DNA of 45,431 nt, filler included, from Catajapyx aquilonaris (taxonomy: Eukaryota), in NCBI GenBank assembly GCA_000934665.2. It is 2 parts of 2 records of this genome, joined end to end, with 100 filler letters (N's around TTAATTAATTAA, not from the genome) between each part and the next. Parts side by side here need not be neighbours in the genome. Positions count along the whole stretch, not along the records: positions 22,830 to 45,431 come from JYFJ02005840.1; 1 more part is not named here. One strand, 5' to 3'. Under the pieces are notes generated by a model. That model worked only from the letters and a program-made list of their open reading frames with translations, was not told where the DNA came from and ran no database searches. Positions 9,072 through 45,431 of this stretch are shown here, piece after piece (the first letter of the stretch is position 1; every line of letters begins with the position of its first letter). Position numbers and translations under genes: made by a program.

Positions 9072-9111
9072 AGGCTGTGTGTGTGTGTGTGTGTGATGTG
9101 TGGTCAGACAT

Positions 9112-16710: not shown

Positions 16711-16711
16711 C

Positions 16712-22420: not shown

Positions 22421-22512
22421 CTCCTATATAATAATCATAATCATATAATAACCTATGTATGATGACTAATAAAGAACAGTCAATGGATATAGTAGCTACT
22501 GAATGATAAGTA

Positions 22513-25139: not shown

Positions 25140-25397
25140 TTTGTTTTGTTTTTTTATACCCCATTGGGAGAATCAGCGCTCCATTAGGGGGGTGGAATAC
25201 CACCATTGGATGGGGCCAAGGATAGGGATTGAAGGAACCGGCTGTGGCCTATTATACGGAAACAACCCGGGAATTATCCTGGGGGGACCTTGGAAAACCA
25301 CAGAAAGCCACTGTCAGGATCGACCGCCCCGGGAATCGAACCCAGGACCTCCCGATTAGCAGTCTGGCTCGTTAACCCCTACACCAACCTGCTTTGG
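25140..25397 (-). mobile_element. tRNA-derived SINE (Lm1/Talua-like 3' region)
   Basis: B box GGTTCGATTCC; 18-bp TSD TGTAGAATATGTATATTG (25122-25139/25398-25415). Confidence 0.85.
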
Positions 25398-26456
25398 TGT
25401 AGAATATGTATATTGCGTACATGAATGTCAACAAACTTGGGAAATTGATCGCTATTCAAAGGCAAATTATTGCGTATTAACATAGTTTTGCTGTGTCTTT
25501 GCTGTTGAGAGCAGGAATTTTTCCACGTAAATGACAGCTGCTTAGCCCCAATTAATTAAATGCATTTCAGTGGCAATGTCACTTGCACTTGAGAATTGTT
25601 AATTACTGTATTATTGGTGTACATGTGTTGGAAAAACTTGGTTTTTGATTTTCATTTTTAGGACTTGTAATTATTTTTTTACTTTTTTACTATCATTTCT
25701 TTATTGCAATTATTTTTGGTCTTTTTTATTTTTATGTACAATTTTTTTTCGTTGAATATATTTGAAAAATATCAATGGTGGGCTTCCCACATGTAGTCGA
25801 ACACACTTGATCATGTGTGTAGTGCCTTAGCCTATTGTAGTAGACATAGTGCCCACAATTTTTGCAGATCATTATAATTAGTTTTTATTTTTTTTATTTT
25901 TACAAACTGTAGTACTAGTGTCTTTATTTTTATTTTTAAGATATTTAGTGCGATGAAACTGCATTTTCAAATTTATTTCCACTGGTTTTTGTAAATATTA
26001 CTTGCATAGTAAATTTTTTTAAAACTTTGGTTACAAACAAATAATGGACTTTAAATTTTGAGGACCTACTCTGGATCAAAAATGTTCATAGTACTTTGTT
26101 GCACATAGTTGTAGAGAACAGATCTGAACAGCATTGCATTATTTTCATTCTTGCTAAAGTCGGGCACCAACAAGTTGACTGGATCAATAATAATTCATTA
26201 TTTATTGAAAACCATTTGCTAGTACGAGGACTGACAAGTGAGTGCTTGGTCAACAACTTCAATTTTTTTTTCTGAAAGTTTTTGTCGCATTATTATTGGA
26301 CCTCATTATTGATTTTAATTACGAGGTGCCTTGTCCCACATGGTTGCACCTAGGTGTGCTTCACTCTCATCCATCATTTTCCTTGGACCTTATCAATTGC
26401 GTTCCATGATATAGCAACTGTTACTCTTATGATATAAAGGAAATGTCTCATTATTG

Positions 26457-26835
26457 AGTTCCCCTCCCTCTCCCTTCCCCAGATGGTATCTCCCCCTTTG
26501 CTTCTCCCATGACCTCGAGAGCTATGCCGGCGGTAGCTTAGTCTACTGGCAGGGTTTCCCAAGCCGGACAGGTCTTTGGGGTAGGAGAAATGCAAAAGGA
26601 GATGCCAGTCCTTCCTCTCTTCTTTTCCCTCTTAGTTTCTGTGTACATGTGCTGTTTCACTTACATTTTGCGAAGGTTTTGATTCCTTAGCCTGCCCGTA
26701 GCTTCAATGATGTAATGAAAAGCTGTCTGAATTTTTTCGTGTTGAAAGCTGCAACACACTGATTTCTTCTCATGCATTCTTCGTGCATTCTCAATCCATT
26801 GATCAATTGTTTCCTTTTTGCAGAGGACATGTCCA
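26457..26835. repeat. ~375-bp direct repeat copy 1 (RTE 5'UTR-like piece plus an unknown coding fragment)
   Basis: Near-identical to 28420-28792. Confidence 0.95.
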
Positions 26836-27049
26836 TGAAACAATTATTGTTTCAGCCCTCAGGCATTTGTCATTGTCTGGGCCGATCCTGCTTTTGAGGC
26901 ATTTCACCTGGCTCAAGGGACATAACCTTTGTATCAAGGTTCCTGATGTTTTTTTGCTATACATTCGGTGAGTCATATTGAACCAACTGATTTCCAGGCC
27001 TTTGATTCCTGATGAATCTATTGAGTTTGCATCTACATCTGCCTTGTTA

Positions 27050-28145
27050 CTCACCATAATGACTGTCTGATAAATTAACTCAAACATCTTTCCATCGACT
27101 TTAGCCATGTTTAGGTAGACATAATTCTGCTGATCTAGATTGCCAAATGGATCCTCGTATTTAAGTCGTTTCTTGTCAAAGCATCCAGTCTCACTTACTG
27201 GGACTTTGAAAGATGACAACTTTCATGGTGATAAAAGATATCACTTTTCCCTCCGTAGATGTCCACAGGTTCTGCTGAATGACTTTGTCGTTAACATTGC
27301 ACAGAAGTTGAGCACTGGTCATATTGACACGAAACATAGAGTCGTGTGTAGGGCATATCACATTTGCAACTGTCTTCTTGGAAAGACTTGCGTGACAAGT
27401 TAGTACATCGTCTAACTTATGGTTACATTTGTCTTTATTCCAGTTGGGGTCTGGGATCTTCTCCCATGTAAGTACCCCGTGATCCGCTGTGTAACAATAA
27501 ATCTGATTGTAGAGGTAGTGACCAGACAGTGGAATCAGCGTTTTTATACTCAGATCCCAATGGTCCATACTAACTGTTAAGTTAGACACCTTGATAATTC
27601 TGGATACTGTCGTGGATGTTCCTGTCCAGCCATGTTGTGCATGAATAATTTCTCCAATCTGGTTCCCAACATAACCATTTTCCCTCTTTTCCTCCAGTTC
27701 TCTGATATACTTTCTACAGTCCACTGCATCTACAGTGACTGGCTTGGTCTTAATGGTTTCTGTCTGAGCTCCGAAGAACCAGTAGGTATACTTGGAAGTG
27801 TACTCCACACCATGACAATAAGTCACGTTGATGTTCCATGCAGATGTATCGAGGGACCATAATCCGACTTGCACTTGACATGTGTTAAGCGTGGATGTCC
27901 ATTGGTCTTGGTAACCTCCAATCAGCTTCATCCAGGGCTGCTGCAAAATCGGGCTTATTGAGCCTATTTTTCCACTGCAGTTGGATAATGGGTGAATGTA
28001 CGGATTTTCAGTGTTTTTTGTGCATCTGTAGTGCTTGTGCATCAACTAGGATTGGAGATTTTTCTAATGAGAGGTATCCGTCAGTGAAGGTCACAATTGT
28101 TAGCCCGATCAACAGAGTCTGCATGACAATGTATAGAAAAAACAT
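27050..28145 (-). pseudogene. Endogenous viral element: mononegavirus (rhabdovirus-like) class III glycoprotein G, frameshifted and lacking a TM anchor
   Basis: Signal peptide MFFLYIVMQTLLIGLTIVTFTDG from ATG 28145; YCHGVEYTSKYTYWFFGAQTETIKTKPVTVDAVDC parallels vesiculovirus MCHASKWVTTCDFRWYGPKYITHSIRSFTPSVEQC (fusion loop 1); GWTGT (loop 2); CYTADHGVLTW. Confidence 0.8.
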
Positions 28146-28228
28146 GATTTATATTGAGCTGATACTCTTCGGAAGACACTTTATAATTGATATTAAGGTG
28201 GTTGGCCCAGCATTGCCTTTCAACCTCC

Positions 28229-28399
28229 AAGGATAGGGAAGGAAGGAAGCGGCTGTGGCCTATTATACGGAAGCGACCCCGGAATTATCCTAGAAAGACC
28301 GTGGAAAACCACGGTCAGGGTTGCCGGCCCCGGGATTCGAACCCAGGACCTCCCGATTAGCAGTCGGACGCCCTATCCACAATGCCAACCTGCTTCGGT
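28229..28399 (-). mobile_element. tRNA-derived SINE, same family as 25140-25397
   Basis: A box TGGCATTGTGG, B box GGTTCGAATCC, GGCCACAGCCGCTTCCTTCC 3' motif. Confidence 0.85.
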
Positions 28400-28419
28400 G
28401 ATCAGCATGGAACTGATTA

Positions 28420-28792
28420 AGTTCCCCTCCCTCTCCCTTCCCCCGGATGGTATCTCCCCCTTTGCTTCTCCCATGACCTCGAGAGCTATGCCGGCGGTAG
28501 CTTAGTCTACTGGCAGGGTTTCCCAAGCCGGACAGGTCTTTGGGGTAGGAGAAATGCAAAAGGAGATGCCAGTCCTTCCTCTCTTCTTTTCCCTCTTAGT
28601 TTCTGTGTACATGTGCTGTTTCACTTACATTTTGCGATGGTTTTGATTCCTTAGCCTGCTTCAATGATGTAATGAAAAGCTGTCTGAATTTTTGCGTGTT
28701 GAAAGCTGCAACACACTGATTTCTTCTCATGCATTCTTCGTGCATTCTCAATCCATTGATCGATGGCTTCGTTTTTACAGAGGACATGTCCA
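28420..28792. repeat. ~375-bp direct repeat copy 2
   Basis: Near-identical to 26457-26835. Confidence 0.95.
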
Positions 28793-29169
28793 GGGTGATG
28801 CGGGGTTGCCGAGCATTAAGGTTCTGTCGATCCCTGCTTCAACGGCTTTATCGTGCCTAATGCTGATGGGGAATTTCTGCGTAATGATGATCATTGTTGT
28901 CATCAGAGGGTTTGGGTCTTTCGAGGTCTCTTGATGCTCTTTTGATTGCCCGTAGATTGTTGGGTGGGGTTGTCTGCAGAACTTTTATTGGTTGGGCTGC
29001 AAAAGGGCAGCCACGGGTCATTGTCCTCAAGAGGTAATCTCTCTCATTGTCTGTACTGGATAAGCGTTTCTCCAGTGATAGTTTTTTTTAGATGGCAATT
29101 ATTGGAGTGTCAGAAAGTATCTTCATTGGCATTCCTTCTCTCTTATTAGCAGTAAACGCAAATCTTCAC

Positions 29170-29750
29170 AATATGTGTTTGTTGTTTATATTGCTTGTCA
29201 GTTGACACATTGCTGTTTGGAAGTCGTCGTCTGCAGGGTTTTACCCTCCTGGTCTCATGCTTGCAGTTTCTACTCCGAATTGGGCTTCAAAACTGACGTC
29301 CTGGTACCAAGACGTGTACTCCCCAAAACCTTCCTTGAATATCCAGCTATTTATCTCACTGATGTTTGTGCCAAGGGGTTTAAATGAGTTTTGGTGCAGT
29401 ATTCATCGAAAACACCGAGGTACAATGGTGCTTTCGAAAGGGTATATTTAATCATTCGCAAGATCATAAATAGTCGTGTTGGTTCATTGGATCAAGGTGG
29501 GTGTTGGTTGCCCCCAGCAGACAATTTCAGGTAGCCATCATTAATATACGGATGGCCTGTATCATCAATTTTTGTGTCTTTTGCATGAGTGGGATCCTGT
29601 TGGACTTGTCTCCTAATTCTTCAAAGGGCTGTAAAGTCATACAGTGAAATGCCAAGTATGGATTCATGTTGAATGGCATTTAAAGTCCTAACAATGATTT
29701 ACAAGTTATACCTGATAATCACTATAATAATACTGTAATGGTTGACCATG
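29170..29750 (-). pseudogene. Possible second, highly degraded rhabdovirus-like G N-terminus
   Basis: Hydrophobic leader; [37 protein letters not shown] aligns ungapped with the VSV-G fusion-loop-1 segment; multiple stops. Confidence 0.35.
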
Positions 29751-31197
29751 ATTATATCCCAAGTTGGGTCTAAATGGTCCCTGTGTGAGCCATGAAGGGA
29801 CAGTTTTTAATACAAAAGTATGATCCTACATATTGCACTCGCATCCATTAACCTCATTATATCAGAGTGCCATGTGGCTAATTGCCCTGCATTACCCACA
29901 ACCTGCTTTCTCTTGGAAATGCAGTCACTTTCGAAGACAAATTCGTGTGGTCCAAGCTGGTTATCACTCCCTTTTTAAGGAGTAAAAAGGTTGTCATGGA
30001 CCTTGTTCTTTTGTTGAGTCTGTTTATGCTCTCTTGGGTGAGTGAGATCGTGTTGGAATCTAGCCGCCTAATTCTTCTTGGGTCCTCTTCTTTTAATGGC
30101 AATACCATGCTTTTGTCTCAACTTTTTCATCTTGTTGAATTTATTATTTGCTCTGCTTTCTAATGTTCGCCTTTTTGTGTGGATGGTACTGAGTTCGCAT
30201 ATCTCAAAAGAGAGTTAGATCCACTCCAAGCAGTTGGAACTTGGGTTTTCCCACATCATGCTTGAAGAACTAAACTATCTGTATGCCACTGCTAGACACA
30301 CTTCGATCAGTTATTGGGCACCAGGTTTATTATTAGTAAGAAATGATGTGACTTGATATGCAGTTGAAGAACACTCGCTATACATTGTCACCCTTGGTTG
30401 CATTTGATTATTCTCTGGGTCCACAAATATTGTGCTGAAGAGGAAAGAGATACGTAAGGGTACATTCCTGTAGTACCCACCAGACAGCTTCTGGCCGAAA
30501 ACTTCTGGTGCAAATGCACTTCGTTGGGCGTTGTCTTCAGAGGCTTCTGGATATTAATGTCGGAAGCAAGTCTAGTTCTCATGTAAAGCGCAAGTTTTTC
30601 GTACACACTTTGTCCATGTAATATCGTTTCTGTGCATGTTCCATGGAAGTCCTTTTAAATGCGTTTGATATTATCTGCATAGTCGTAAGGTAATAATTAT
30701 TACAATAACAAGGTTACATTCACCTACATACGTACCCTAGAGTTGGACCCAAGAGGGTAGTCGGATGACTGGATGAGTTGGCTGTGTGTAGCTCAGTTTT
30801 ATGTTAGGTTTTATTGCTGGGGTCATCAGACATCATTCCCTTCTGTACTTGTGCACATGACCCCTGAAGCATTCGTGCTTTTGTCATTGCCAGCTTTACT
30901 GAGTGTTAATATTCAAATAATATTTTGGAAGGACTGTCTTAAATGAATTTAATGTTGTTTATTTACAAATGTCTTTAGAGAATAGTTACAACACAACGTC
31001 ACTAAAGTTAAGTTACCCAAGTTTCACAAGTTTGCTAATTAATTAGACGTTATCTGAGCATAATCGAGGGAAAGTGCCAGCCTTACAGGTTAATTTCGAG
31101 CGGCTACATTATCAATCGTGACTGCTAGCCCGCGCCCAGGAACTAATTAGTCCTCTTCAGAAGTTACTCTTACATACTGGACTGTGCATGACAATAA

Positions 31198-31280
31198 CAT
31201 CACGACATTTCCCTATAAGGAGTAGTCAACGATGAACAGAGACGCAGGTTAACGCCACATATGAACTAATTTAAAACTTG
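31198..31280 (-). mobile_element. 3'-terminal fragment of the RTE LINE family seen at 21281
   Basis: CATCACGACATTTCCCTATAA..GTAGTCA.CGATGA...ATATGAACTAA.TTAAAACTTG shared. Confidence 0.7.
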
Positions 31281-31542
31281 TCCGGCCTCCTTCCGCTCCG
31301 AAGGGTTAGTTTAATCCGCCCTCTGCATCCTCACCAGTGGCGTCCCTCTGATCATTACGTGGAGACCTCTTGACGCTCTTGTACTCCGACTACTCCCTCA
31401 CTGTGTTGCTCGAGTATCGCGGCTATAATGTACAACATATACTGATATATATCCCAATTGTTAGACGCTGAACTACCTCCCTTAGGGCCTAGGTATTCAA
31501 AGGGCGAGTAGTGCACAACCAACTATAACCCTAATCAGGAAA

Positions 31543-31863
31543 TTACTTTTTACGGTACATGAGGGCTTCGTAAAACTGTGTCTTCATCAGCCATGGCCCT
31601 GGTCCTTTCTGTCCATAGCTGGTGCATCCTCCCAGTTCCAGATGTATGCCCGCGTTTCTGACCCTCCGAGAGGTCCAGCGTTGGACCCTCCCCCACAGGA
31701 TCAGATGGACATCCACGGTGGTGTCGGTGCTTGCCTCTTTTGCCGTTATGATTACCTCATCTTGGTCGACGTGGACTTCCAGGTTGCTCGGACTGGCGCA
31801 GAAAATCTCTACGACCATGATCCGACCGTACTGTCTCCAACCGATGATACGAGTGCTGCCCAT
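31543..31863 (-). CDS. p23/CS (HSP20-like) domain-like ORF, copy 1
   Basis: GWRQYGRIMVVEIFC...LEVHVDQDEVII...VHLILWGRV...GIHLEL fits the CS-domain W.Q....V...+...V strand pattern; paralogous to 33928 and 38124. Confidence 0.5.
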   Translation of the reverse strand: MGSTRIIGWRQYGRIMVVEIFCASPSNLEVHVDQDEVIITAKEASTDTTVDVHLILWGRVQRWTSRRVRNAGIHLELGGCTSYGQKGPGPWLMKTQFYEALMYRKK

Positions 31864-31994
31864 CTTGGGGTTGTTGATTCTCCTCTGTTGTTCCTTTTAT
31901 GCAGTTCCTTTTGCTGAGGTGTGCCTCCGTGTTCAGTATAATGCATACCGTACCAAAAGTTAAGTTATCTGCACTGCTGTAAGATCAACATTAT

Positions 31995-32500
31995 CAACAA
32001 TTATGGAATGACACTCAAAGCTCAAAGTAGTCGATGTCTGATTTCAATGGTATAGTTAGTATTAACCTAACATGCGTTCTCATAAGCAACATTAGGAAGT
32101 CCAGCAGTAGTATAAGGGAATTTAATCAATCTTGGCTGGGATAACTAAGTACAAATTACTCGGCCATGAAGGCAGTATTTCTTTAAGGTTATGCGAGAAT
32201 TCCTCAGGTGTCAACCAACAGTCTACTGTGAAATCGGCCTTCCATTGATTTCTGAAATACATCGTCTAATTCATCAACCGCCTGCCTCCCTAGGCAGCAT
32301 GCGCAAGCCTATAGCTCATGCTAAGTGAATGCAAGCTTAGAGTTCCACGTTGTCTCATTCCCGTTGCGCTTGTACTGCCTGATAATGCTCGAAATGTACT
32401 CTCCTGCAAACTTGATTGTCTCCTTGGCCTATGATCAGACTTTTGATTCCTAAGTGGTGCTCGACTAAGAGCAGAAGGGCGATCGTGATCAAAGTTCATC
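31995..32500 (-). pseudogene. Baculovirus F / errantivirus Env-like fragment (mid F1)
   Basis: ELDDVFQKSMEGRF...LTPEEFSHNLKEILPSWP.NLYL.....IPLYY...VRLILTIPLK..YFEL. Confidence 0.7.
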
Positions 32501-32859
32501 CTTTCTGCCTGAGGCCCTCTAATCCACCCTTATGAGAGTACCAGACCCCGGCGCCTGTCTCTCAGGTTCCTGGCATCTGGAAAAGAAGGAAGGAGGAGGA
32601 TTGTTATGAGATGCTTGGAGGGCACCAAGATTATTTGACGACGAAGCAATGCATTCCTCGCACCAGCAAATATTAAGTCTTAATAAGCGATACTTTTATC
32701 CCTAAGAGCAAAATATTGGAGCAGGTGTCAGGTGTTACAAGAGAACCGTTGTATATAATACAACATGTGTATCAAATAGACCTTGCTGGGTGTCAGGGAG
32801 GTGTCAAGTATTTGGATTTATTGTTTCTGCAAGCCTTCTGCCTTATCTGATTCCTCCAG

Positions 32860-33300
32860 TTCACGTATGCGTTGATCACGCTGAGCTTTCTATTAGTCTG
32901 AAATGTTGAAAAACCATTTTTAGCTGGCTCTCTAGCCAGCGTGCATTAGACAAAATCCAAGAACGGTTATAAGATTGCCGGATCTTCGCTATTATTGGTG
33001 GGGTTATGCTTTTATCAAGAATATCTGCCCTGTCTATATTAAAACATTCTCAATTTTGAGTTACTCCTTTAGTATCCTGCAGGCCAACTGGATGCACTCA
33101 GTTCGTGATGTTGATCGCGTTGCATTTTAGTCCAAAGAATATTATATAATTTTCCTGCTACCGATCTTCAAGGTCGAATATCTTTTCCGGTAGTGACTTG
33201 ATTTGGGTGTCCATTTGGCTTACCATCTCCATCAGAGTCTGAATTTCGTCATCTGCTCTTTCAATGGGTGTGGAATCTTCATCAGTATATTTTTAGATCA
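32860..33300 (-). pseudogene. LINE ORF1 remnant (L1/CR1-type coiled-coil + RRM)
   Basis: IFDLEDR*QENYIIFFGL...IDRAD.L.K...IAK...WILSNARWL. Confidence 0.7.
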
Positions 33301-33927
33301 TGTGCCAGCGTTTGATGCAGGTTATCATTTTGAACTAGTTTCTAATGGTGTCGTTGCTTTGTGGTGATGCATAGTCCTGCTGCTGTGGAACTGGGTTTGG
33401 CCATCCATACCTTCCGTATTTGATTGAATGAGCCTGTCAAAATGTGGCCGTTGGGTTTTCACCCTACTTTAATGTCGTTTAAGGTTCGAATAATCTGGGT
33501 AAGGCTACATTAAAAATGCGATTTTAATATGACATATGTACAAAATGTTCTCTACGACTGTTGAGACAACGTTCACAACCCAGCCAAAAGTTTTGACAAT
33601 AATTTCTACAGGTCTTCTTGGACACCGGTATCAGCAGCGCCATCTGGTCTGGGTCGAATGGGACCTTCCCCAGTCTTCGCTTCGGTTTGTGCAGGCTGGA
33701 GTCTCCATCTTGGTGTACGTTGCGGTGTCTACCCCTTTTCATTCCCAAGGGTCTTCCGGACTGCTGTCATATCCGAGAGTGGCGGCCTCTTCTTGGTCCT
33801 GACCATGGTTCGTCTGTTCCGCTCTTTACAATAACAACACATCGTTACGAATCACTGCATAATATGACCCTCATGTTACAGGCTAGGCACTCAAAAGGAC
33901 AAATAGTGTAACAACAATAACTATTCC

Positions 33928-34317
33928 CTAATCAGGGATATGACTCCTTACTAGACCATGGGGTGGTCTACCCCGAGGCGCGTCCTCCTCTTCTTCCTGT
34001 TCCACCAAGAGCCTGGCGAACCATAGCTCATAAATACGGCCCTGAAATAACGCCAACCTGGACACTCCCCTTCTCTCTGTCTTCTCCCAACGTGTGGATG
34101 GTGCCAGTACCCACTTCGGATCTTCTCCGAAAACGTTGATCAGTTGTCTCCAAGGCCTTACGGTTCCCGTCTCCAGCTCAAGGTGTAGACCCCTGTGACT
34201 GGTCATCAGCCTCGTCCACTCCCGGATGGGTCCCCAGGACTGGTGGTTTATCCTCATGCATTCCACAAATTTTGCTTTATTTATCTTCGAGACTTGATCT
34301 GTCCCACCTTTACGCAC
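33928..34317 (-). CDS. p23/CS domain-like ORF, copy 2
   Basis: WGPIREWTRLMTSHRGLHLELETGTVRPWRQLINVFGEDPKWVLAPSTRWE parallels p23 ..WPRLTKE...NWL.VDF..W. Confidence 0.55.
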   Translation of the reverse strand: MRKGGTDQVSKINKAKFVECMRINHQSWGPIREWTRLMTSHRGLHLELETGTVRPWRQLINVFGEDPKWVLAPSTRWEKTERRGVSRLALFQGRIYELWFARLLVEQEEEEDAPRGRPPHGLVRSHIPD

Positions 34318-34599
34318 GCCCTTTGTATAGAAATATTCCCATGATAGCTTCCCCTACACACTACTATAGTGTATAGGATCGTCATATTTATGGACCGCCC
34401 ATATAAGGCCAGCGTTAGTGTCCCATCGTTTAACTGTCAATTTCTGGGACTTGTGTCTGGTGGAGCTCCCCATTTCTTCCTTTCACTACTCCTTCCCACT
34501 CGCTGCAAACATTTTGCATGTGCGCTGATACTCTTCTCTGGCCCAAGCTCTATAAGTAGGTACCCATGTTTGCCAATCATTTTTTAACCATGTGGCAAT

Positions 34600-35600
34600 A
34601 TCGTGGCGAACGTACTGTTCGCAACCACGACACCGCTATAGATACATCCTCTCCCAATCATCGTCATGGTTCGAGTTGTGTTCTCCATCTTGACCTCGTC
34701 CTTCAGTCACTGGAGCCGGATCTGCAGGGGTCCAGAGCCAGAGAAGGCACCATGGGACGAGTCTTGTTGTTCTTCAACATCTCTACAGGGGCAGCCCCCC
34801 CGGGTCAAAAATGTCCCTTGCATCAAGGGAATAGGTGATCAAGAATGAGTACCATTTTTTTCCTCGTACAGCCACCCGGTAGTTTGCAATGTTCTGGTCC
34901 ATTCTGTCTACACATCCCACGTTTTGATTGTACATTATTTTGAACCAGTCAGCTGAGTCGGGGATAATATATGTTATGCTGAATCAGGGTGGTAATCTAT
35001 ATTGCTGACTCAGGGATTGCAACATATCCGCTCCCTATGTGGAAAGTTGTGTGTCCGGTCTGACAACCGACACTGAAATGAGAGTTGCATTGGGTATCTT
35101 ACATTGAAGACCCAATGGTCATAATCATTGACGGGAGCAAAGTTGGGTTGCGGATTAACTACTATGGTTTTTATACACTTCACTCCCTCGATATGCGCTA
35201 TTGTTGTGATCACTGAGGGCTGCAATTTATTCCTGAACGTGCACGATTTCTTGATTTTTCTGCGTCAAGCCTACTCTTAGTTTGTGATTCAACCGCCTGA
35301 TATCACTTTCTGTGCTAACTCCAAAGATCCCTTTGATAACTTTTCCGCCAAAGTATATCAGTCCTCTTTTCTGCCTAGATGCGTCTCTTACTTCTGTTAA
35401 ACGTTCGAGTGTTTTACTTTTACGGTTAGTGTCGTCTAAGTATTTTATCTCGGCTTGTATGCCGCGTATAGCTCTGATGATGTCTTCCCAATCAGCCTGC
35501 CACACATCCTCTTGCTCCGGATCTCTGATGAATTCTTGAGGGCCACGAAGAGTTCTCCTAGGTCCAGTTCACCATCGGTACAGGAGGAAGACAATACCGT
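34600..35600 (-). pseudogene. Baculovirus F / errantivirus Env-like gene remnant with furin site and fusion peptide
   Basis: RQKR|GLIYFGGKVIKGIFGVSTESDI (RxKR-GLI..GG...K.LFG..D..D motif, ~35376 downwards); HWVFNV...LSFQC downstream; internal deletions. Confidence 0.85.
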
Positions 35601-35689
35601 GGATCGTCACTTCCGTCATAAGGGAGCTATTTGGTTCACAGGAAGTGTAGCACTGCATCTTGCTCTATATCTTCCTGCTTTGAAATACT

Positions 35690-36100
35690 CAATCGAGTCA
35701 CGGAGCCGTATATCAACAAAATATTTATTTCATGGCTCCTTTCACTTCCGCCGCTGTTAACTTGCCGAATTGGTATTAATTATAGTGTTTTTCAAAGTGG
35801 AACTCCAAGGGACAACAGGTTCGGTAGTTTAGTGATTAATTGAGTTAAAATTCAATTTAACCGAGTAGGGGGAAGGATCTACGTGGTTATTCCACCTTGG
35901 CTCAACGCATCTATTGCATGCATTACTTGGTCATGCAGATCGGCAATCACTCCGAAATTGATTTCAAAGGCCCGGAACATTGTGTCCGTATCTGCAATCG
36001 CAAATACCTGAGTTCAAACTCGACTTATTTGTTCACTGTTTTCCTGGGATAATTGTATCATGATGGTTGTCATAATATGCATTGTTTCTAAGAGATTTAA
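35690..36100 (-). pseudogene. F/Env-like fragment (mid F1)
   Basis: VMHAIDALSQGGITT*ILPPTRLN*ILTQLITKLP fits the G.I...I.PP..L...L..I...LP motif. Confidence 0.75.
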
Positions 36101-36550
36101 TAGGGTTCGTTTTCTTTCGTTTTTCCCGCCATTTGTTCAATTATTATTGTCACCTGTTCTTCTCTAATATGTAACGTACCCTTTTGTGTGTTCACCAAGT
36201 GTCCAATTCAATTGTTCAGTGATCTTCGACGTCTTTTTCAGCAGATAAGCCAAGGGAGAACCTCGATGTTGTGTTTACAAAAATTTTAATTTTTAATCCG
36301 CTCTTTTTTCTCCACTCTTCCATTAAAGTGAACGTATCTTTCAACTCATTAAACTTTCGTCTTAACCCTCTGGTTTCATTCATTATTCAGCTCTTTTCGC
36401 TTCGAATAGAAAATCTACTCTTCCGAACCCAAGCTTAGCCATGCGTTAATCCCGTTTTTCTAAGTTATCACATGTAATTTTTAGAATTTATGTAGCTCTC
36501 TTCAGAAGGTGTTGATGAGCTTCCGGATTAAACGATTATCCAAGAAAATG

Positions 36551-36905
36551 AGTGAACAAATAAGTCGAGTTCTCAACTCAGATGTTCGCCATTGCAAATA
36601 CGGTCACATTGTTCAGAGCTTTTGAAATCAATTCAGGAGTCATCCCTGATTGGTGATTAAAAAGTGGTGTAAGCCATAGCCTACATGTGAGGTGTCAAGG
36701 CGAAATGTTCACTATTTTTCCGCCTACGCAGCCGACTGAAAATTTAACTAAACTTATCACAAAATTACCTATAATCAATTGTCTTTTGCAGTACCTTTAA
36801 AAAAAATACCTCGTCTCCTATTATTACCAGTCTGGTAAGCTAACGGCGGGAGCAGTGGTGAAAGGAGCTATGAGGGTTTCTGTTGATGTATCGCCCCGTA
36901 ACTGA
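36551..36905 (+). pseudogene. Inverted, diverged homologue of the 35690-36037 F/Env fragment
   Basis: AGTGAACAAATAAGTCGAGTT...TTTGAAATCAATT...GTGAAAGGAGC shared; TQMFAIANTVTLFRAFEINSGV vs TQVFAIADTDTMFRAFEINFGV. Confidence 0.8.
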
Positions 36906-37392
36906 ACCCCTCGATGTGGGCGCCTGTTCGTGGTGAGGGGACCACCCTACTGGGCATTCCTTCGTGTTTCTCTGGTAGGGTCCTGAACGCCCACCCGCAA
37001 TTGAAATATTTATTTCGCCGACTTTTGCGGTGTTGTTATTGGCTATTTGGCGGAGGAGAATATATTGTTGATGTTCTCTTTCGTGGGCGTTGAGTTGGCT
37101 TATTATCTGTCGCTTGCTATTAGCGAGATGGTTTTGTCAGTTGACGTATTTCATTGTTGTTTTGATGGTTTATCTTTATTCAATAATTGAAGTAATTGAA
37201 AGTCACTAATTATTTATTAGTGACTTTGTAACATGAACTCTTACTGCGATTAGTCTTTAGTGTCTTTATTATTTTTCCTCTGTAGTGCATGAGGGACTTG
37301 GATGTTGATTATTACGGTGTTTGTTGGTGGGGGTTTCTTTTATGAGGTGCCGGGGGGCTAGGGCCTATTGGCGGGGTCGACCCTTGAAGTTC

Positions 37393-38041
37393 CTATGTAA
37401 GTGCAAGTGTTTGAGATATGGGGCTAGAGAGAGACTTGTGACTGGCCATGATCTCTGGAGCGACTTTGTCATGTGCAATCATCCAGTTGATGACAATGCT
37501 CTCAATTTTAGGATGCACCCCTTTCGATGCTCTCTGGTAGTTTGCGAAAGACCGAGTTTGATGCCTCGCGATTGCAAATTCAGCCGTGATATAGATATGT
37601 TGTTTCTGTTGAGGCATTGGGTTTCGCTTTTGGGATGAAGCAATTTCACGTAGCATCTGTCGGTGGCAGGCTTGGTCATGAGGTATTTCCACGCTTCCGT
37701 CATGAGCTCCACTTCCTCTCTGAGATGAAGAATGAGGAGGATCTCAGGAAAAGTTATGTATAGATACTGGTCGATGACCAAGATATGCAACATTTCCGAT
37801 CCGTGGAGCACAGTGCAGACGGTGTTGAGCCCATGGGTCATTTGGCGCTGACGGTTCTGATAATGATGTACATCAGTTCTCGTCGAAGAATGTAATTGGC
37901 GGACATGAAGTTTGTTGGCGGAATCCATCCCTGGTATACCAGGGACCCTTTCCAGCAATTCTCTCTCTCCACTACTCCGAGGGTGACTGCAAATGTGTCG
38001 ATCCTTGACTGTACCCACTGATCGTACCTTCGGGCATTCAC
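37393..38041 (-). pseudogene. Endogenous viral element: chuvirus (Jingchuvirales)-type nucleoprotein, C-terminal portion with two frameshifts
   Basis: YDQWVQSRIDTFAVTLG...W...FMSANYILRREL / EMLHILVIDQYLYITFPEILL..LR....MTEAWKYL...DRCYVKLL.PK..T..LNRNN / A.FAIA....SFANY. Confidence 0.8.
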
Positions 38042-38123
38042 ATTTTAAACTAAGGTCAGGAGAATAAAATAGCGGACTTGGATGTTCTATGATTTATGGT
38101 CTTGTTCCACTTCTTGATTGCTT

Positions 38124-38400
38124 TTAACACCCAGTCAGGCTCCTCCCCAGGGTGCTCACCAGACTCGGCCAACGTTGGTCGCTCTCGGTCTGGAACTCCA
38201 GATGTAGGCCGTCCCTATTCGTCATCAGGCTGATCCACATCCTTACACTTCCCCAGAATTTAAACCGGATGTCTACTGTTGCTTTGGTTCCCTGCTCTCT
38301 AACTTTGATGGTTAAAGTTGAGCCTTCCAGTTGGATGTCTGGGCTGAAACAGAAGACTTCCAGCACCAGGTCCTCTCGCCGCCAGTGACTACGTTTGATT
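38124..38400 (-). CDS. p23/CS domain-like ORF, copy 3
   Basis: HWRREDLVLEVFCFSPDIQLEGSTLTIKV...VDIRFKFWGSVRMWISLMTNRDGLHLEFQTESDQRWPSLV. Confidence 0.55.
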
Positions 38401-39089
38401 GGTCCAAAGTGACCGCCTATCTAGTGAAACAACATGTATGTTTTATTCTCCTTGTAGTATACATGCGCACCGTATATTGAAAGCTTTATTTACAGAAGAA
38501 ACGAGAAAAATTAAGAGCGAGAGAAACTTAACGTTTTCATATTACTTTATCTAAACAATGTAACAACTTAACTCACTTAACCAAAACAAAACACCACAAA
38601 ATAATGTTACATGAGAAATACCAATAGTCTACCTTCATCTCAAACAACAACACGTTGAGGCAGCCTCGCCCTAGACAATACAGTCTGGATCTCACCCGTC
38701 CGATTACGACATTGGAAGTGACTGAATTCGACGGCCCCCCCAGCGTCTCCAGCCTCTTCCATTGAGAGTGGTCCTTCCTGCAGTCCTATCGTGGTCTCAG
38801 GCTTCGCTATTTCCGCTTCAGATTTTTTCGGCTCTTCTTCCCTTAGTGTTGGTTGCTGGCCTTCTGGTGTCTCCCACATTCTTGGCTTGTTGTCCGTGGT
38901 AGATCCTCCTCCTGTCTCCAGCTTCCTCCACGTTGGGTATAATTCTTTCCTTAACAGCGGTTGACGTCCTTTTTCGTTTTGTCAGTGGCATTCTCCTATC
39001 TCAACGGCTTCAGACATCTGGAAGGTGGTTTCTTCTCACCTCCAGTTCGGTCTTCAGATATTATTCTTTCTAGACGGATCGTGGCTGAT

Positions 39090-39300
39090 TTTTGAAATAC
39101 GTCATCCAATTCGTGCCCTTGTACTATCGCAGCATGTGCAAGCCTGAAGCTCATGCTGAGTGAATGCAAGCTTAATAATCAACGTCGTTCCAGTCTTGCT
39201 GTGCCGGCTTGGCATGATAGTGGTCAAAGTTTGTTTTGGAACACACTGAGCGTATTAACTAAATGTCTAATGGACATCGTAATGATGGATCGAGTAGTAG
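39090..39300 (-). pseudogene. F/Env-like fragment homologous to 32250-32400
   Basis: Shared GCAGCATG.GCAAGCCT..AGCTCATGCT.AGTGAATGCAAGCTTA block and LSLHSLSMS.RLAHAA...ELDDVFQKS. Confidence 0.7.
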
Positions 39301-39399
39301 TATCTCTTCCTGGTCAACCTTGTCTGATATCCGATCACTTGAAAGCAATGCACATTTGCATGCTGGTTAGATATGCATGTTTCAAGAGAGAACAACATT

Positions 39400-39505
39400 C
39401 GGCTCTGGCAGGTTATCTCCGACGATGCCAGCCCATACGTTCATGGAGAATCAATGTTGATGGCGTGTAACTACGTATATAGGCATGTGGATTGTCGTGA
39501 TTGGG
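39400..39505 (-). pseudogene. Tc1/mariner (DUF4817-type) transposase fragment
   Basis: DNPHA...RHQH*FSMNVWAGIVGDNL. Confidence 0.75.
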
Positions 39506-41169
39506 GCCTGTAAATATCGTCTGGATGTACAATATCCACCACATTTTTTCTCGTATTAATTATAAAGGGCTCCCTTGATTGAATTTACTGATATCGCATT
39601 TACAACGCCCTATTCAAATAACACAATTTTTTCCATGTCCATTGGTCCAATCAAAATTCTCTGTGTATGCTGTAGCCATTTTGGTCGTTTTTGTTATTGT
39701 CGAGTTTCTGAGTGGGGTAGGAGTTGATCTCCAGCAGTCTTCTTAGCTGCCTTACAACTGCTGCCTTCCGGTTGGGATCGTCCCTTTGGGCAGCAAGCTC
39801 ATGTTGTATGTATATGAACTGTGTAATATCTATAGACCTAAGAGGAGCACCTAACTTGATGTCCTGACATCCAGGCATCAGGCAAGGTTTCCTGCCGAAT
39901 GATGGTCTGCTCGTCTTAGTGTATGGTAACATCTGACAGTAATATTTGCATCATGTTGCTGACAAGTATTTCGTTAACCCAGTCTTCATACAAGTTGGAA
40001 TGGTGGGCGGGTGGAGGCTGAGCAGGTTGTGAGTCTGGACAGGTGTTTGTCGTATGAGTCATCATGATCTCACCGCTGACACCCTCCCCTCTTGGTCGTT
40101 CCATTGGTCTGCTAAGTCGCCTCGGATGGGGATGACCCGCTCTAGCGGTTCTTCGGCTCCCTGTTGGTCAAAGGAAGAAATTTGTCCATACACCCGCGTC
40201 GCAGCATGTCCAACAAGACAGCTATGAATGAGCATTCACTCACTTTTTCGTCCTGTTTTGACCGGACTGTATGTACCATTGGAAGGAACATGCGCACTGG
40301 TTCTTCTATTGCCCCTACGTTACACATGTCAAGGGAAGATAGTACATCAAGTCCGTTCGAGGCGAAAAAGGTTCACCATCATTAAGCACGAAAAAATACA
40401 ACAGCTCACCTTCAACTCGACTAGGTCTGCTGATAATTATCTTGATCATTATGTTAAGTACAGATCAGATTGTCAAATGCGCAAGGGTCATCAGCACCGA
40501 TTTCGAAGGGAGCTTCTAGTTCAGTGATTAGATTTTCACCTCTAGCGGACTGATGCAACCTCTTAGAGCGCTTTAAAGTAATGGGGGAAATTGTGTACAA
40601 CCCATCTATTATTAAACATTGACACTATAGGATAGTACAGCCCCTTCTGTTATTAAAGACATTTATATATCAAGAATATATCAATAAATTTAACCCCAGG
40701 TTTGTACTGTATTAACCATTGGTACACCCTGTCCTCCTGTGGTTCTGCTTCTGTCGCACTTGCGAGTACGGGAGGGTTCGGACGAGACAATGTGCTTAGG
40801 CTTGATTGAAACTATCAATGGTTAACATGACCAAGACAATGCTTTAATGACGACAACTCTATACAACAACGATATTAAGTTCTCATGAGTATAACATTAA
40901 TAAAGACCCTTTTCATCACAGGGGGGAATAGTCGCCATAATTACCTATTCAGTACTCCGTAGGGTGATGTCTCCTTTGTGGTTCTGGGTCACTCACTTAC
41001 TCACTGACTCTCCTGGCATTAGAAGAGTCCAGCATTTATATACTGATCAATGAGCTGACCTCAGCTAGCTGTTGTTTTCTTTATTACTAGCTGAGGGGCT
41101 CTTACACATGTTTTGAGCTGTTACGGATGTCTCAATATCTGATAAGGAGTGCTTACTGGTGGTGAGTCA

Positions 41170-41672
41170 GGCTGACATATATTGTGCTGATTCAGCGATG
41201 GCAACAATATTGCATTGCTCCAGTAGAAGTGGTGTTAGGGCACAGATGTGTTTAAAGGTACAAGAATGGTGTAGTGCATCAAGTAAAGGTGCAAGACACT
41301 TGTCAATATATACCTATCAAGTCAGTAGTGCGGAGAATGATGAAGGTTCCTGGATTTTTAGAGGCAATGAATAGTTTTAAGAGAAACAGATTGACAGACA
41401 CTGGGGAATTTTATACTGTTCATGGTTGTCGGTATTATAAAACGCACAGCATAATCCAAGGGAATGACCATGTTTACCTCTTAGAATTTTACATTGATGA
41501 TATTGAAACTGTTAACCCTCTCGGATCACATGCCGGCATCCATAAACTAGGGATGGTATACTTTACCTTCAAAGACTTACCACCACAGTTCAATTCGCAT
41601 CTGAGATATCATTTTATTGTTAACATACATTCTGCAGTTGATGTTGGAAGTATGGGTATGAGCCTATTTTGA
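41170..41672 (+). pseudogene. CMC/EnSpm-like DNA transposase fragment
   Basis: LEFYIDDIETVNPLGSHAGIHKLGMVYFTFKDLPPQFNSHL. Confidence 0.8.
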
Positions 41673-43063
41673 ACCCAATATGACCATTACTGTTGAGAAA
41701 ACGTTTACAACCCAGCCGAAAGTCTTGACAATGAATTAGTCTTCTTGTTGTCACCGGTCAGCGGCGCCATATATTCTGGGTCGAGTTGGACCTTCCCAGC
41801 CTTTGCTCTGTTCAGCTGGGCTTCCTTCCTTGGCTCTTCTCCTTGGCTGGATAATGTAGCTTCGGGTTAATTTATGGTGTGTCCCCACTTCCACTGCTTG
41901 AGGTCGCCTTCCTCTACCAGGCTGCCTCGTCCCTTCTGACGGTGGGCGTCTCAGCCCGATCTTCACAATATTCTGTTACACTTGACCTGGGATTGGCTCC
42001 AATGGTTTCTCAAAGAAGGACGATGGATCAGTAACAAAAGTTTATCAACAAAAAATAAAGCAATTACATACCCATGATGTTCACTGTTCACTCACTCCGA
42101 CGGACCAAAATAAAAAGATGCTGCTCTGGGGCGGTCACCCCCTTTTATACCCTCGGGTTGCGTACCAGGAAGTTAGGCACGTACGGCCAACGTCTCTGTT
42201 TTGGTGACAATGTCCTCACTGCCCACGTCACTGCTGACCATACATTTTATTATCTTAATAGTCAGGCAGCCTCCAGGTAAACATCCCCGAGTTCAAACCA
42301 TATCGAGGATTCCCTGCTGTATTGTCGTAACTCACTTGGGCAAAATTTTCCAGGGGAAACGATTGAATTATTACTCGGCATCAATATAATATATTGTGGC
42401 GTGAATGTATTCCTCTGCAACATCATAATATTATGTGCCCTTGGCAGTAAGTATGACAATGTATGTCAATTAGAAGCTGCAGAATTGGACACCATTTTTG
42501 TGGAGTTACGACATTTGGACTGCTACATGGTTTCCATATGGTGCATGCTATATTGTCGTATGTGCAAATGATGAGAGGAGAGCAAGTAAAAGTCATAGAC
42601 AAGACAGTAGTTGTAACCAGATGATGAATTCTTGGTTCGGTTGAAGTTAAGGTTTTGACTGCAGTATAATGTGTCTGCCTCGGAGTTGAACTTTTACTCT
42701 CACATGAATGTCATTATTCATTCACTCATTAAGGCATTATTTTTTCATTTACTAGAAGATTACTCATCATACTGATTGTACAACATACTGCACGTATCTG
42801 TCCATTTATATATTTCTTTTTTAAATTTCCGTTACCACACACTTACAAAACCATTTGAATAATAAATTATTGTTCTGAATAAGCTTGACATGATCTTTTA
42901 CCACTATAACCAAAGAACAGCCACAGCTAAAATATAAATACAAAACATTATTTCTCACAATAAAATTATTCAGCCAGTACTGTCATCAACTATGCGTATT
43001 TAACCCAAGATAGTTGACGTTAAAGTTTTCCATACCCAAACCTCCAGAAAAGATAAACACAAA

Positions 43064-43444
43064 TGTTCACAGTGTATAAACGGTTTATTATACGGATGCT
43101 ACACAGAGTCACAGGCAAGGGTTGCCTGTATAACACAATTATAAAAGGACAAGAATTTGGGGCTACTTACACAAGTGGGAGCTTCCTGTAGAGTCGTCCT
43201 GGAGAGAGAGACCAAGAGAGGCGGAGGACGCTTTATATAGGGCTCGTTTGCCCTTCAGAACAAGGAAATCCACGCGTGCAACCTTAGTTACGTAAAAGTT
43301 AAGATGGACGGTACATCCGATGTACCTGTAAATTTTAGTTGTAAAAAGGTGACCTCGGTCCGTCCTTGAACAATACTAGAAGAGTACTAACGCACGCGTG
43401 TGCAAATGGTACGTACAGAAACAAACATGGCGCCCTCCGTGACA
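43064..43444 (-). mobile_element. 3' LTR of an LTR retrotransposon, preceded by a polypurine tract
   Basis: Minus strand TGTCAC...GTGAACA; TATATAAA (43232-43239), AATAAA (43084-43089); GGAGAGGGAGG a few nt upstream (43450-43460); no TSD, so not a clean solo LTR. Confidence 0.65.
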
Positions 43445-43604
43445 AATCACCTCCCTCTCCGGAAGAAATTATGGCCAGCGCCATAATTTCTCCTTTTGCA
43501 CTCATGGAATTTTTTTAAAAAAATGACAGAGATTGACCATTTCAAAAAAATAAAGAAAAAAGAAAAAATGAATAATACAAAACATGACCGTGCGAGCAAT
43601 TTCA

Positions 43605-44201
43605 CTACGGCTGCTTCTTGGGATTCTGGACCTTCCACACCCTCCGCTGACCTGGCAGCCGTCTGGTCCCATAGGGATGCTCGTTATGGTCCCGGAATTG
43701 CTGCTGTTTTTGGGCCGACACAGGACCGGGACTCCGGGCTCGGGGGCTGGATCCGGGAAGAGCGGGCTCCGCAACCCGTGTGAGAACGACGGGGAGCACC
43801 CCTGTCGCTACCTCCTCCAAAGCTCCCAAGTCGGACAGGAAGCGGTCGTCGATGTCCTCCTCTAGACTGGAGCAACTGCTAACTGGTGACCACCCGGGTT
43901 GCGTGGTCCCCTCGGCCGGACCCTGGGTTATCACGGCGTCCACACCGCTGGCTGCCGTAAGGTCTGCGTGGCTGCCGGCGGGCGGTTCGGTGGCGTCCTG
44001 GGTGGTGGCTGGCAGTATACCTTGGCGCCAGGGCTGTACCTGGATCCTCGCTTCAGGGGGCAGCCACCTCCAGTCCGCTATCCAGTTGCCGGCTACCCTC
44101 ATCATCAGCATTCCGCCGTTGTACCCGTCAGGGGAGATCAGCACAGACCCATTGGTCACCGCGTGCCCAGCGAGTTGTAATGTGGTCGGGGGATTATACA
44201 T
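43605..44201 (-). CDS. Unknown GC-rich 198-aa ORF between the G fragment and the PPT/LTR (possible retroelement accessory ORF)
   Basis: Open frame in the ORF track; no recognised motif. Confidence 0.3.
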   Translation of the reverse strand: MYNPPTTLQLAGHAVTNGSVLISPDGYNGGMLMMRVAGNWIADWRWLPPEARIQVQPWRQGILPATTQDATEPPAGSHADLTAASGVDAVITQGPAEGTTQPGWSPVSSCSSLEEDIDDRFLSDLGALEEVATGVLPVVLTRVAEPALPGSSPRARSPGPVSAQKQQQFRDHNEHPYGTRRLPGQRRVWKVQNPKKQP

Positions 44202-44347
44202 CTACCACGGCTGGCGGCGGCACAATGTACGTCATCAAGGGCCCCTGCTCAGACGTCCTCACACTCGGCTGGATCCCCTGAGCTACGGTAACTGCTGGTT
44301 GCATCCGGTTGGAGACCGGCCCATGCAGCGGAGGGGCTGCCGCTCGC

Positions 44348-44614
44348 TGGTATGATTCTCTCGGAGTGTTGAGAGGTATAGGCTCCGAAGAAGTATCGGG
44401 TGGAGGTGCAGCTGGTTAACCGGCAACGCACGACATGGGCTGGTATTCCCTGGGACCTCAAGTCCGGTGCAAAAATGTCCAGTCTCAGCGACATGAGAGG
44501 AGTTGATTCACAGGCGATCGGGGGTGGTGACGGAATCAGGACGGGTGTTGAGTGGAAGTTGCACAGGGAGGACACAAGGCGCAGGAGGGACGCCAGGAGC
44601 AAGGGGTGTCTCAT
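44348..44614 (-). pseudogene. Endogenous viral element: 5' part of a mononegavirus class III glycoprotein G
   Basis: Signal peptide MRHPLLLASLLRLVSSLC; HVVRCRLTSCTSTRYFFGAYTSQHSERII fusion-loop-1 pattern; starts just after a viral gene junction. Confidence 0.7.
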
Positions 44615-44638
44615 GGTTGGTTTGCTCTCTTTGAGAGT

Positions 44639-44656
44639 CGCTTAGTTTTTTTGATA
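44639..44656 (-). promoter_or_regulatory. Mononegavirus gene junction (gene end / intergenic / gene start)
   Basis: TATC-AAAAAAA-CT-AAGCG between a stop codon (44671) and the G ATG (44614); VSV consensus is TATG-A7-CT-AACAG. Confidence 0.8.
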
Positions 44657-44670
44657 GGGAAACTCAACAA

Positions 44671-45130
44671 CTACATAAGTTTCTCCGGAGCTCTAGGAGC
44701 GGGCTGGTCTAAAACATGGATCTCTCGAACAAAAACGACTTCTACTTTAAGCCCCATAAAGGCTGCTCGAGGGAGGCCGCTCACTTCCGTTCCACTGAAC
44801 ATCCAATACCCGTTCTGAGGCGGGTTCGGATAGGTCCTGTCGGGAGTCACTGTCATGATCAGATCTCCCAGCCACAGAAACTTGATGTTTGATCCATCGA
44901 AGTGCAGTCCGGATTCGTTGTCCTCCAGGCTCCCGATAGGAAACCGCATGTCATGAGCTACCATTTCTCCGTTGGTGTGGGTCACTTCCACTCGAACAAG
45001 CAGATACACCTTCATGTCATGCAAATGCCTCCAGGGAAGGCTGGTCCGGAGGAAACACTTGAGGGGGTGGACGGTACACTCAATATTAATATCTTCCCAT
45101 TTTCTTTTCAACAACTTCTGATTTGAAATG
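44671..45130 (-). CDS. Putative viral matrix (M)-position ORF upstream of G
   Basis: Uninterrupted ~150-codon frame ending 14 nt before the gene-end signal; assignment by gene order only. Confidence 0.5.
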
Positions 45131-45133
45131 GCA

Positions 45134-45335
45134 TCACAACATGTGTTGGAAATGGCCACCATTATCGGCCAGGCAGGTCTCAACACGGCACGACATATTT
45201 TGGAATCTTCTGGCCAGCATAATTATTATCTTGCGGTACTGCCTGAATTTCCTGGACAGTTGTTGTCCTTCAAGGCCTGGATGGACCGTTGATTGTTGCG
45301 GTACACTCTTCCTTTCAGAAAGCCCCATAAGAAGT
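45134..45335 (-). pseudogene. Tc1/mariner (DUF4817-type) transposase C-terminus
   Basis: FLWGFLKGRVYRNN..SIQALKDN / MLARRFQNMSCRVETCLADNGGHFQHML*. Confidence 0.85.
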
Positions 45336-45431
45336 GTGACGCCAGGTTGGCGATGCACATGGCTGTGGGAGTGACCAGTTGCAATTGGTACACTCCGACC
45401 CAGTTCGGGCTTCCGCTGGCCACAGCCAGTA

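Follow-up and report, generated by a model that had tools for sequence, protein, structure and literature searches.

A strand-polarised mosaic of viral and transposon fragments in Catajapyx aquilonaris, a candidate one-strand piRNA locus

A mosaic of short, decayed and unrelated fragments, nearly all of them on the minus strand, occupies about 17 kb of a 45,431-nucleotide stretch of DNA (filler included) from Catajapyx aquilonaris (GenBank assembly GCA_000934665.2). This stretch, hereafter the window, consists of two records joined end to end with 100 filler letters between the parts, and positions 22,830-45,431 are those of JYFJ02005840.1. The minus-strand bias had been proposed in a reading of the sequence alone (hereafter the sequence-only reading), and it is recovered by the searches reported here: of 13 oriented, tool-supported pieces at 25.2-38.4 kb, 12 lie on the minus strand, and each one-kb bin between 25 and 42 kb, 17 in all, shows negative AT skew. 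With unrelated fragments nearly all on one strand, transcription of a plus-strand RNA would yield sequence antisense to them, as that reading had also pointed out. The region from 25.0 to 42.0 kb could quite plausibly belong to a plus-strand transcription unit of RNA polymerase II and serve as a one-strand source of PIWI-interacting RNAs (piRNAs), an interpretation that we favour while stopping short of calling it probable. The domain and the pieces recognised within it are as follows.

25001-42000, no strand: strand-polarised domain, in which the plus strand is T-rich and the minus strand is, by AT skew, the A-rich sense strand of most fragments
25216-25399, minus: copy resembling a short interspersed nuclear element (SINE), 79% identical and direct to 28227-28400 (self-blastn)
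26453-26835, no strand: direct repeat R1, 95.6% identical to R2 (self-blastn)
26806-28045, minus: remnant of a rhabdovirus-type glycoprotein (G), comprising a 284-aa open reading frame (ORF) and a 139-aa ORF in a second frame
28227-28400, minus: tRNA-derived SINE with a tRNA-like head at 28322-28393 (Rfam tRNA, 34.1 bits; ARAGORN, tRNA-Ser (gct))
28416-28792, no strand: direct repeat R2, the partner of R1
29181-29387, minus: orthomyxovirus-like PB1 piece of ~70 aa, PB1 positions ~464-546
31546-31896, minus: beta-sandwich family, copy 2 (blastp between window ORFs)
32403-32558, minus: Mononegavirales L polymerase piece of ~50 aa (Pfam Mononeg_RNA_pol)
33931-34353, minus: beta-sandwich family, copy 3 (blastp between window ORFs)
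34786-34983, minus: C-terminal tail of a piggyBac-type transposase (Pfam DDE_Tnp_1_7, E 5e-6, 26.5 bits, cut-off 22.4, profile positions 305-342 of 349)
35230-35568, minus: baculovirus-F / errantivirus-Env-type piece (Pfam Baculo_F, E 1.2e-3, 17.9 bits, under the cut-off of 24.1, profile positions 109-173 of 609)
35639-36100, minus: coding-like piece without a name, with an inverted partner at 36570-36874
36570-36874, plus: inverted partner of 35639-36100 (DNA 68% identical; protein E 3e-14)
37480-38071, minus: lispivirus-like nucleoprotein (N) remnant, profile positions 167-369 of 424 in three frames
38127-38420, minus: beta-sandwich family, copy 1, in the same frame as the ORF holding the N piece and ~55 bp upstream of it
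41256-41669, plus: ORF of 138 aa with no Pfam family at E ≤ 1

Polarity and borders of the domain

The strand tally takes in only those pieces whose strand rests on the result of a tool (two-sided binomial p = 0.0034, by hand); when neighbouring or duplicated pieces are merged, 9 of 10 are on the minus strand (p = 0.02). The strand of the SINE-like copy at 25216-25399 was assigned because the tRNA-like head of its partner gives the orientation. The sole supported piece on the plus strand is 36570-36874, which agrees with the first of two coding exceptions named in the sequence-only reading (36551-36905). The second (41170-41672) corresponds to an existing ORF, at 41256-41669, but one to which no Pfam family could be attached.

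A measure without dependence on annotation is provided by AT skew in one-kb bins. Its mean is -0.143 at 25-42 kb; in the first 25 kb it is negative in 13 of 25 bins with a mean of +0.015, and the bins after 42 kb are near zero (-0.005, +0.097 and -0.034). The borders of 26457 and 45431 drawn by the sequence-only reading are replaced by ~25.0 and ~42.0 kb, no skew being present beyond 42 kb. Within the domain, the skew is of equal strength in the 10,931 unannotated bases (-0.146) and the 6,069 annotated ones (-0.138), and the 12 unannotated gaps of 200 bp or more are negative without exception. The two plus-oriented pieces (36570-36874 and 41256-41669) have an AT skew of +0.016, unlike their surroundings; since they do not share the negative skew, the inserted elements themselves appear to bring the skew, and most of the domain appears to be co-oriented with them. 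This suggests that the unrecognised part, roughly two thirds of the domain, mostly points the same way as the fragments. On the evidence of these two pieces, which are two only, a regional mutation bias is disfavoured as the source of the skew. Of five DNA repeat pairs that lie in the domain or touch it, four are direct (self-blastn), and no tandem repeats were found in the second half of the window, so that duplication does not explain the polarity.

The same orientation emerges from protein families. The 468 stop-to-stop ORFs that reach 45 aa on either strand of the whole window were scanned against Pfam at E ≤ 0.01, and the families scoring above cut-off were transposon or virus families only. 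The scan gave the following.

25.9-45.4 kb, minus: 100 ORFs, 4 matches (Rhabdo_glycop_FD, DDE_Tnp_1_7, Baculo_F and Flu_PB1)
25.9-45.4 kb, plus: 119 ORFs, 0 matches
First half, minus: 132 ORFs, 3 weak matches, all under cut-off
First half, plus: 117 ORFs, 1 match above cut-off; 3 weak families on 2 more ORFs

A six-frame read-through, in which X was placed at each stop before the Pfam search, recovered the DDE_Tnp_1_7 match too, added Mononeg_RNA_pol and strengthened Flu_PB1 relative to the ORF scan; plus-strand read-through frames in the second half gave 0 Pfam families. Two weak first-half matches, HlyIII and zf-ANAPC11, were considered as host exons and rejected, their translations resembling noise.

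The polyadenylation hexamers AATAAA and ATTAAA number 13 on the plus and 39 on the minus strand of the domain, and 43 and 40, respectively, in the first 25 kb; a plus-strand transcript of the domain would therefore meet one third as many of them as a minus-strand one.

CpG is depleted over the whole window, with observed/expected ratios (o/e) of 0.32-0.93 per kb, and such depletion is a sign of DNA methylation. The ratio is 0.62-0.91 per kb at 31001-41000, and in the first half it is mostly 0.32-0.73, with one bin at 0.93; the inserts in the domain core may be more recent or carry less germ-line methylation.

Viral pieces and their lineages

The nucleoprotein remnant is an internal piece of ~200 codons that is cut at both ends and carries two frameshifts. 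A local profile built from 16 full-length N proteins matched it in three frames, with E-values of 5.4e-31, 5e-13 and 9.6e-4. When the read-through of 37482-38420(-) was compared by phmmer with 1.84 billion proteins, 40 matches were obtained at E ≤ 1e-3 (best 7.2e-11), all of them within query residues 157-280; the longer ones (388-473 aa) align at about residues 240-360. The 204-aa ORF at 37482-38093(-) gave nothing by word-index search (E ≤ 1e-3) or in the ESM Atlas, and a scan of 17 N relatives found no Pfam family. Informative names were present on 4 of 20 match clusters, three of them Lispiviridae or lispi-like viruses (Hubei rhabdo-like virus 3 ORF1, Hangzhou acrida cinerea lispivirus 1 gp1 and termite lispi-like virus VP5) and the fourth a 'Nucleoprotein' of the weevil genome of Ceutorhynchus assimilis. 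Hubei rhabdo-like virus 3 is classified in Lispiviridae. Protein identity of the N piece is 40-47% over 70-80 residues. The sequence-only reading had taken the piece for a chuvirus (Jingchuvirales) N, an assignment that is rejected here: none of the four informatively named relatives is chuviral and three are Lispiviridae or lispi-like, on a comparison confined to named relatives and made without a direct chuvirus N comparison. As in the N of Hubei rhabdo-like virus 3 and the endogenous copy of C. assimilis, it is the central N region that is homologous, the copy in the window being a frameshifted internal piece of it.

The glycoprotein remnant is assigned to class III G by a fusion-domain profile score that exceeds the curated cut-off (Rhabdo_glycop_FD on 27194-28045(-), E 6e-7, 30.6 bits, cut-off 22). 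One frameshift separates its two ORFs, and the 139-aa continuation (26806-27222) has no Pfam family match of its own. No relatives of G were found by PDB sequence search, word-index protein search (E ≤ 1e-3) or IMG/VR, and no second copy was found in the window, including the region left of the SINE at 25.2 kb, which reduces the two or three G copies counted earlier to a single G in two frames. The remnant and the SINE at 28227-28400 are bracketed by the R1/R2 pair (384 bp), both members of which begin TGGACATG on the minus strand; these repeats could be the long terminal repeats (LTRs) of a hybrid between a transposable element and an endogenous viral element (TE-EVE hybrid), or the product of a 1.96-kb tandem duplication.

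Two polymerase pieces were absent from the list given by the sequence-only reading. The first matched Flu_PB1 under cut-off in the ORF scan (29244-29402(-), E 7e-3) and again in read-through (E 2e-4, 20.1 bits against a cut-off of 26.4, 72 residues). When the read-through of 29052-29702(-) was searched against PDB sequences (E ≤ 10), 13 of the 16 matches were influenza PB1, the best of them at E 0.016, and they covered PB1 residues 468-546, equivalent to window positions 29181-29387. Since two independent methods point to the same 70 residues, 29181-29387 is likely to be an orthomyxovirus-like PB1 remnant. The second matched Mononeg_RNA_pol in read-through (32406-32558(-), E 6.4e-11, 41.2 bits, cut-off 27) and contains GGLEGLRQKG and GQGDNQ, presumably the polymerase motifs B and C. 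Over 48 aa, it shares 60% identity with the L protein of a lispivirus contig (L001); the piece is mononegaviral and of uncertain lineage.

Two direct repeat pairs lie inside the domain with both copies in the same orientation (32246-32339 with 39086-39174, 77%; 33557-33681 with 41689-41807, 80%), and, read along the minus strand, the copy at 32246-32339 directly follows the L piece.

All four pieces show similarity to non-retroviral RNA viruses, with E 5e-31 for N, 6.4e-11 for L, 6e-7 for G and, under the cut-off, 2e-4 for the PB1-like piece. They are embedded in host DNA as truncated and frameshifted pieces (50-410 codons) interleaved with the SINE copies and the piggyBac tail, and the surrounding 45-kb window contains repeats resembling miniature inverted-repeat transposable elements (MITEs) as well as TAGGT arrays. 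The 539-aa ORF of L001 that occupies the glycoprotein position, as assigned by gene order, contains no Rhabdo_glycop_FD and has no match to the G of the window; in view of this dissimilarity, G and N are probably from different virus lineages. Judged by similarity, the viral content appears to span at least three negative-strand RNA virus lineages, represented by the rhabdo-type G, the lispi-like N and the orthomyxo-like PB1, in addition to the L piece. The earlier count of at least three lineages holds in number, and the names attached to it have changed.

Other captured pieces and the flanking sequence

The beta-sandwich family is represented by exactly three copies in the window, which share 27-34% protein identity and an alignment with the invariants W, WG, W, G-HLE and W. 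Two of the three adjoin viral pieces: copy 1 adjoins N, and the L piece is 500 bp upstream of copy 2. The family has no Pfam match at E ≤ 1 (Baculo_F included), no PDB sequence match, no counterpart among the ORFs of L001 and no relative in IMG/VR; a metagenome match to the alignment (L002, 17 residues) was treated as chance. An AlphaFold2 model of copy 1 is all-beta and of low confidence (pLDDT 60, pTM 0.51), and its best fold matches are the CS/p23 and small-heat-shock domains, at the weak level of E 0.01-0.03 and TM 0.5-0.6. The possibility that the domain is the N-terminal part of the nucleoprotein was rejected, with an hhalign probability of 2.9% and no match among L001 ORFs.

The Baculo_F piece at 35230-35568 contains an RQKR site followed by a glycine-rich stretch, presumably a furin site and a fusion peptide, and no relative was found at E ≤ 1e-3 by word-index protein search. 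The neighbouring piece at 35639-36100, which we read as Env-like, matched no Pfam family (E ≤ 1, one minus-strand read-through frame). Five F/Env fragments had been listed in the sequence-only reading; one stands, as the Baculo_F piece, two are the inverted pair that Pfam leaves unnamed, and three belong to the beta-sandwich family without a Baculo_F match.

From 38.4 to 45.4 kb, no credible Pfam family was found in 60 read-through tiles on both strands (E ≤ 0.05) or in 12 longer frames. The two Tc1 elements, LINE ORF1, RTE end and LTR that had been placed at 38-45 kb gained no support from these searches or from selected ORFs compared at E ≤ 1; weak remnants under profile sensitivity may persist. 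A PDB sequence search with 45137-45430(-) was empty, and an ESM Atlas search with 44674-45222(-) returned no usable match. A GC-rich block at 43500-44700 (51-56% GC, CpG o/e 0.7-0.9), preceded by an A-rich run at ~43510-43580, contains a plus-strand ORF of 226 aa, a minus-strand ORF of 198 aa and no recognised protein family; it may be an element, a promoter or an exon.

The first half of the window contains many palindromic, MITE-like inverted repeats (2706-4318, 5641-6253, 8366-8630, 9838-10623, 10861-11302, 17798-18145 and 24024-24186), some families of which recur, for example 3777-3914 with 8380-8515. Together with the evenly divided AT skew, these palindromic pairs bear out the MITEs and mixed orientation that the sequence-only reading had described there. 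Two transposon domains and no others were recognised in the first 25 kb: a Tc1-type transposase helix-turn-helix at 16389-16739(+) (E 1.3e-8), which is the sole first-half match above Pfam cut-off, and an adjoining weak zf-RVT at 16940-17242(-) (E 1e-3). Interstitial TAGGT arrays occur at 8951-9020, 9292-9324 and 12438-12518 and sit in 78%-identical direct repeats (8721-9094 and 12228-12601); TAGGT is a permutation of TTAGG, the telomere unit usual in arthropods, and these arrays, like the CpG depletion, point to an arthropod genome. To the left of the domain, some 2 kb away, a 46-bp AT-rich tandem repeat (4.7 copies, 22512-22829) runs into two N runs of 44 bases each (22730-22773 and 22786-22829). 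The N runs within 22730-22829 are probably an assembly gap or a masked stretch, and their positions coincide with the filler between the two parts.

A possible piRNA source and its rivals

From the orientation of the fragments we infer a plus-strand transcript and, from it, piRNAs. The domain would be a trap-like graveyard in which decayed viral, Env-type, transposase, SINE and unnamed pieces have been gathered in one orientation; a plus-strand precursor would be antisense to nearly every one of them, and it would be diced into primary piRNAs able to pair with the mRNAs of matching elements and viruses.

Loci of this kind are known in other arthropods. In Aedes aegypti, cluster 38 spans 143 kb and carries TE-EVE hybrids on one coding strand, with a single antisense transcript, phased piRNAs, loading into PIWI5/6 and a Ci site near the promoter (Aguiar et al. 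2020, PMC7161354). A survey of 48 arthropod genomes counted 30 species with endogenous viral elements (EVEs) inside piRNA clusters and found enrichment there in 28 of them; in-cluster EVEs yielded primary piRNAs in 81.4% of cases and those outside in 35.7% (ter Horst et al., bioRxiv 10.1101/396382). The Drosophila flam-like loci measure 227-1085 kb, are dominated by Gypsy-family LTR remnants, especially env-carrying ones, and have soma-enriched, strand-biased piRNAs and a discrete promoter as their defining features (van Lopik et al. 2023, PMC10643416).

The domain resembles the Aedes locus in being repeat-rich and intergenic-looking, with non-retroviral EVEs beside transposon pieces on the same coding strand, and differs from it in being known from its sequence, in lying in a CpG-depleted genome and in holding a lispi-like N and an orthomyxo-like PB1, whereas the Aedes locus has a transcript that was shown and mostly rhabdo-/chu-like EVEs (PMC7161354). 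Like the in-cluster EVEs of the arthropod survey (median protein identity ~34% there), the viral pieces are low-identity, negative-strand EVEs in a repeat-rich region; unlike those clusters, which were defined by small RNAs, the cluster status here would follow from layout (bioRxiv 10.1101/396382). With flamenco and the flam-like loci the domain shares remnants that are strongly biased to the strand opposite the presumed transcription, as well as a baculovirus F-like envelope sequence; unlike those Gypsy-dominated loci, it has one Baculo_F/Env piece, prominent non-retroviral virus pieces, and no reverse transcriptase (RT), integrase or gag among the domains found (PMC10643416). Orientation is all that earns it the label 'flamenco-like'.

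Several observations weigh against a one-strand piRNA source. No RT, integrase or gag domain (RVT, rve) was found on either strand at 25.9-45.4 kb by Pfam, in ORFs or in read-through, which lowers the case for a member of the flam family and not that for a locus that works like one. At ~17 kb, with both borders inside the window, the domain is small beside the 143 kb of the Aedes locus and the 227-1085 kb of the Drosophila ones (PMC7161354; PMC10643416), size being no strict criterion. About two thirds of it is without annotation. The 13 plus-strand hexamers compare with 10.6 +/- 3.1 in shuffles and show no depletion beyond base composition, the asymmetry being a minus-strand excess (39 against 22.4 +/- 4.5 in shuffles). 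The viral pieces are distant from known viruses, G and PB1 being recognised at profile level, which makes present-day antiviral targeting doubtful.

The strand bias would also be expected of an ordinary intron or read-through region belonging to a host gene or long non-coding RNA on the plus strand, from which sense insertions bearing splice or poly(A) signals had been selected out and which would have no small-RNA function. Transposons in introns show antisense bias; selection of this kind predicts the same polarity and the same hexamer asymmetry (13 versus 39), and sharp borders at ~25 and ~42 kb and a modest size fit it as well. Against a host gene stand the Pfam results, which recognised no host exon or host protein domain in the 468 ORFs of the window, and the density of four viral gene pieces in 11 kb, which is high for an arbitrary intron. 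We regard this explanation as unlikely, if still the strongest of the rivals.

Co-orientation could instead have arisen by chance, if a few chimeric cDNAs, formed when the RT of a retrotransposon switched template between viral and cellular or transposon mRNAs, had been inserted the same way; the independent events would then be far fewer than 13. The pieces do abut: beta-sandwich copy 1 is ~55 bp from N and in the frame of the N-holding ORF, copy 2 is 500 bp from the L piece, and the merged tally drops to 9 of 10. TE-EVE hybrids on one coding strand are described for Aedes (PMC7161354). Separate events would nevertheless be needed for the virus lineages, at least three in number, for the DNA transposon and for the SINEs; the skew extends over 17 kb and includes 12 of 12 unannotated gaps, and no RT-bearing element was found nearby. 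We consider this origin improbable. Least credible of all is transcription of the minus strand, for instance leftwards from the GC-rich block at 43.5-44.7 kb, which would make the fragments sense to the transcript: this block lies directly right of the domain with long ORFs on both strands, but the 39 minus against 13 plus poly(A) hexamers would favour early termination.

A one-strand piRNA source thus remains the interpretation that we prefer, and a fuller version of it can be put forward with more reserve. The domain may be a one-strand piRNA locus of compact, self-contained form within a CpG-depleted, arthropod-type genome, archiving at least three negative-strand RNA virus lineages together with Env-type and transposon pieces, all lying antisense to a single precursor; many small loci like it would together form a heritable antiviral and anti-transposon memory in this genome, and the thrice-captured, CS/HSP20-like beta-sandwich would mark an undescribed mobile element or virus that is targeted. 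Viral fragments in one-strand clusters are already known, and lispivirus EVEs are in print. Of note here are the corrected viral inventory, including the orthomyxo-like PB1, and the unnamed beta-sandwich family captured three times. Should small RNAs prove absent, the locus would serve as a negative control, indicating that piRNA clusters cannot be recognised by orientation bias alone. With confirmation from small RNAs, the arrangement seen in Aedes would extend to another arthropod lineage, and orthomyxo-like and lispi-like viruses would join the set of those archived.

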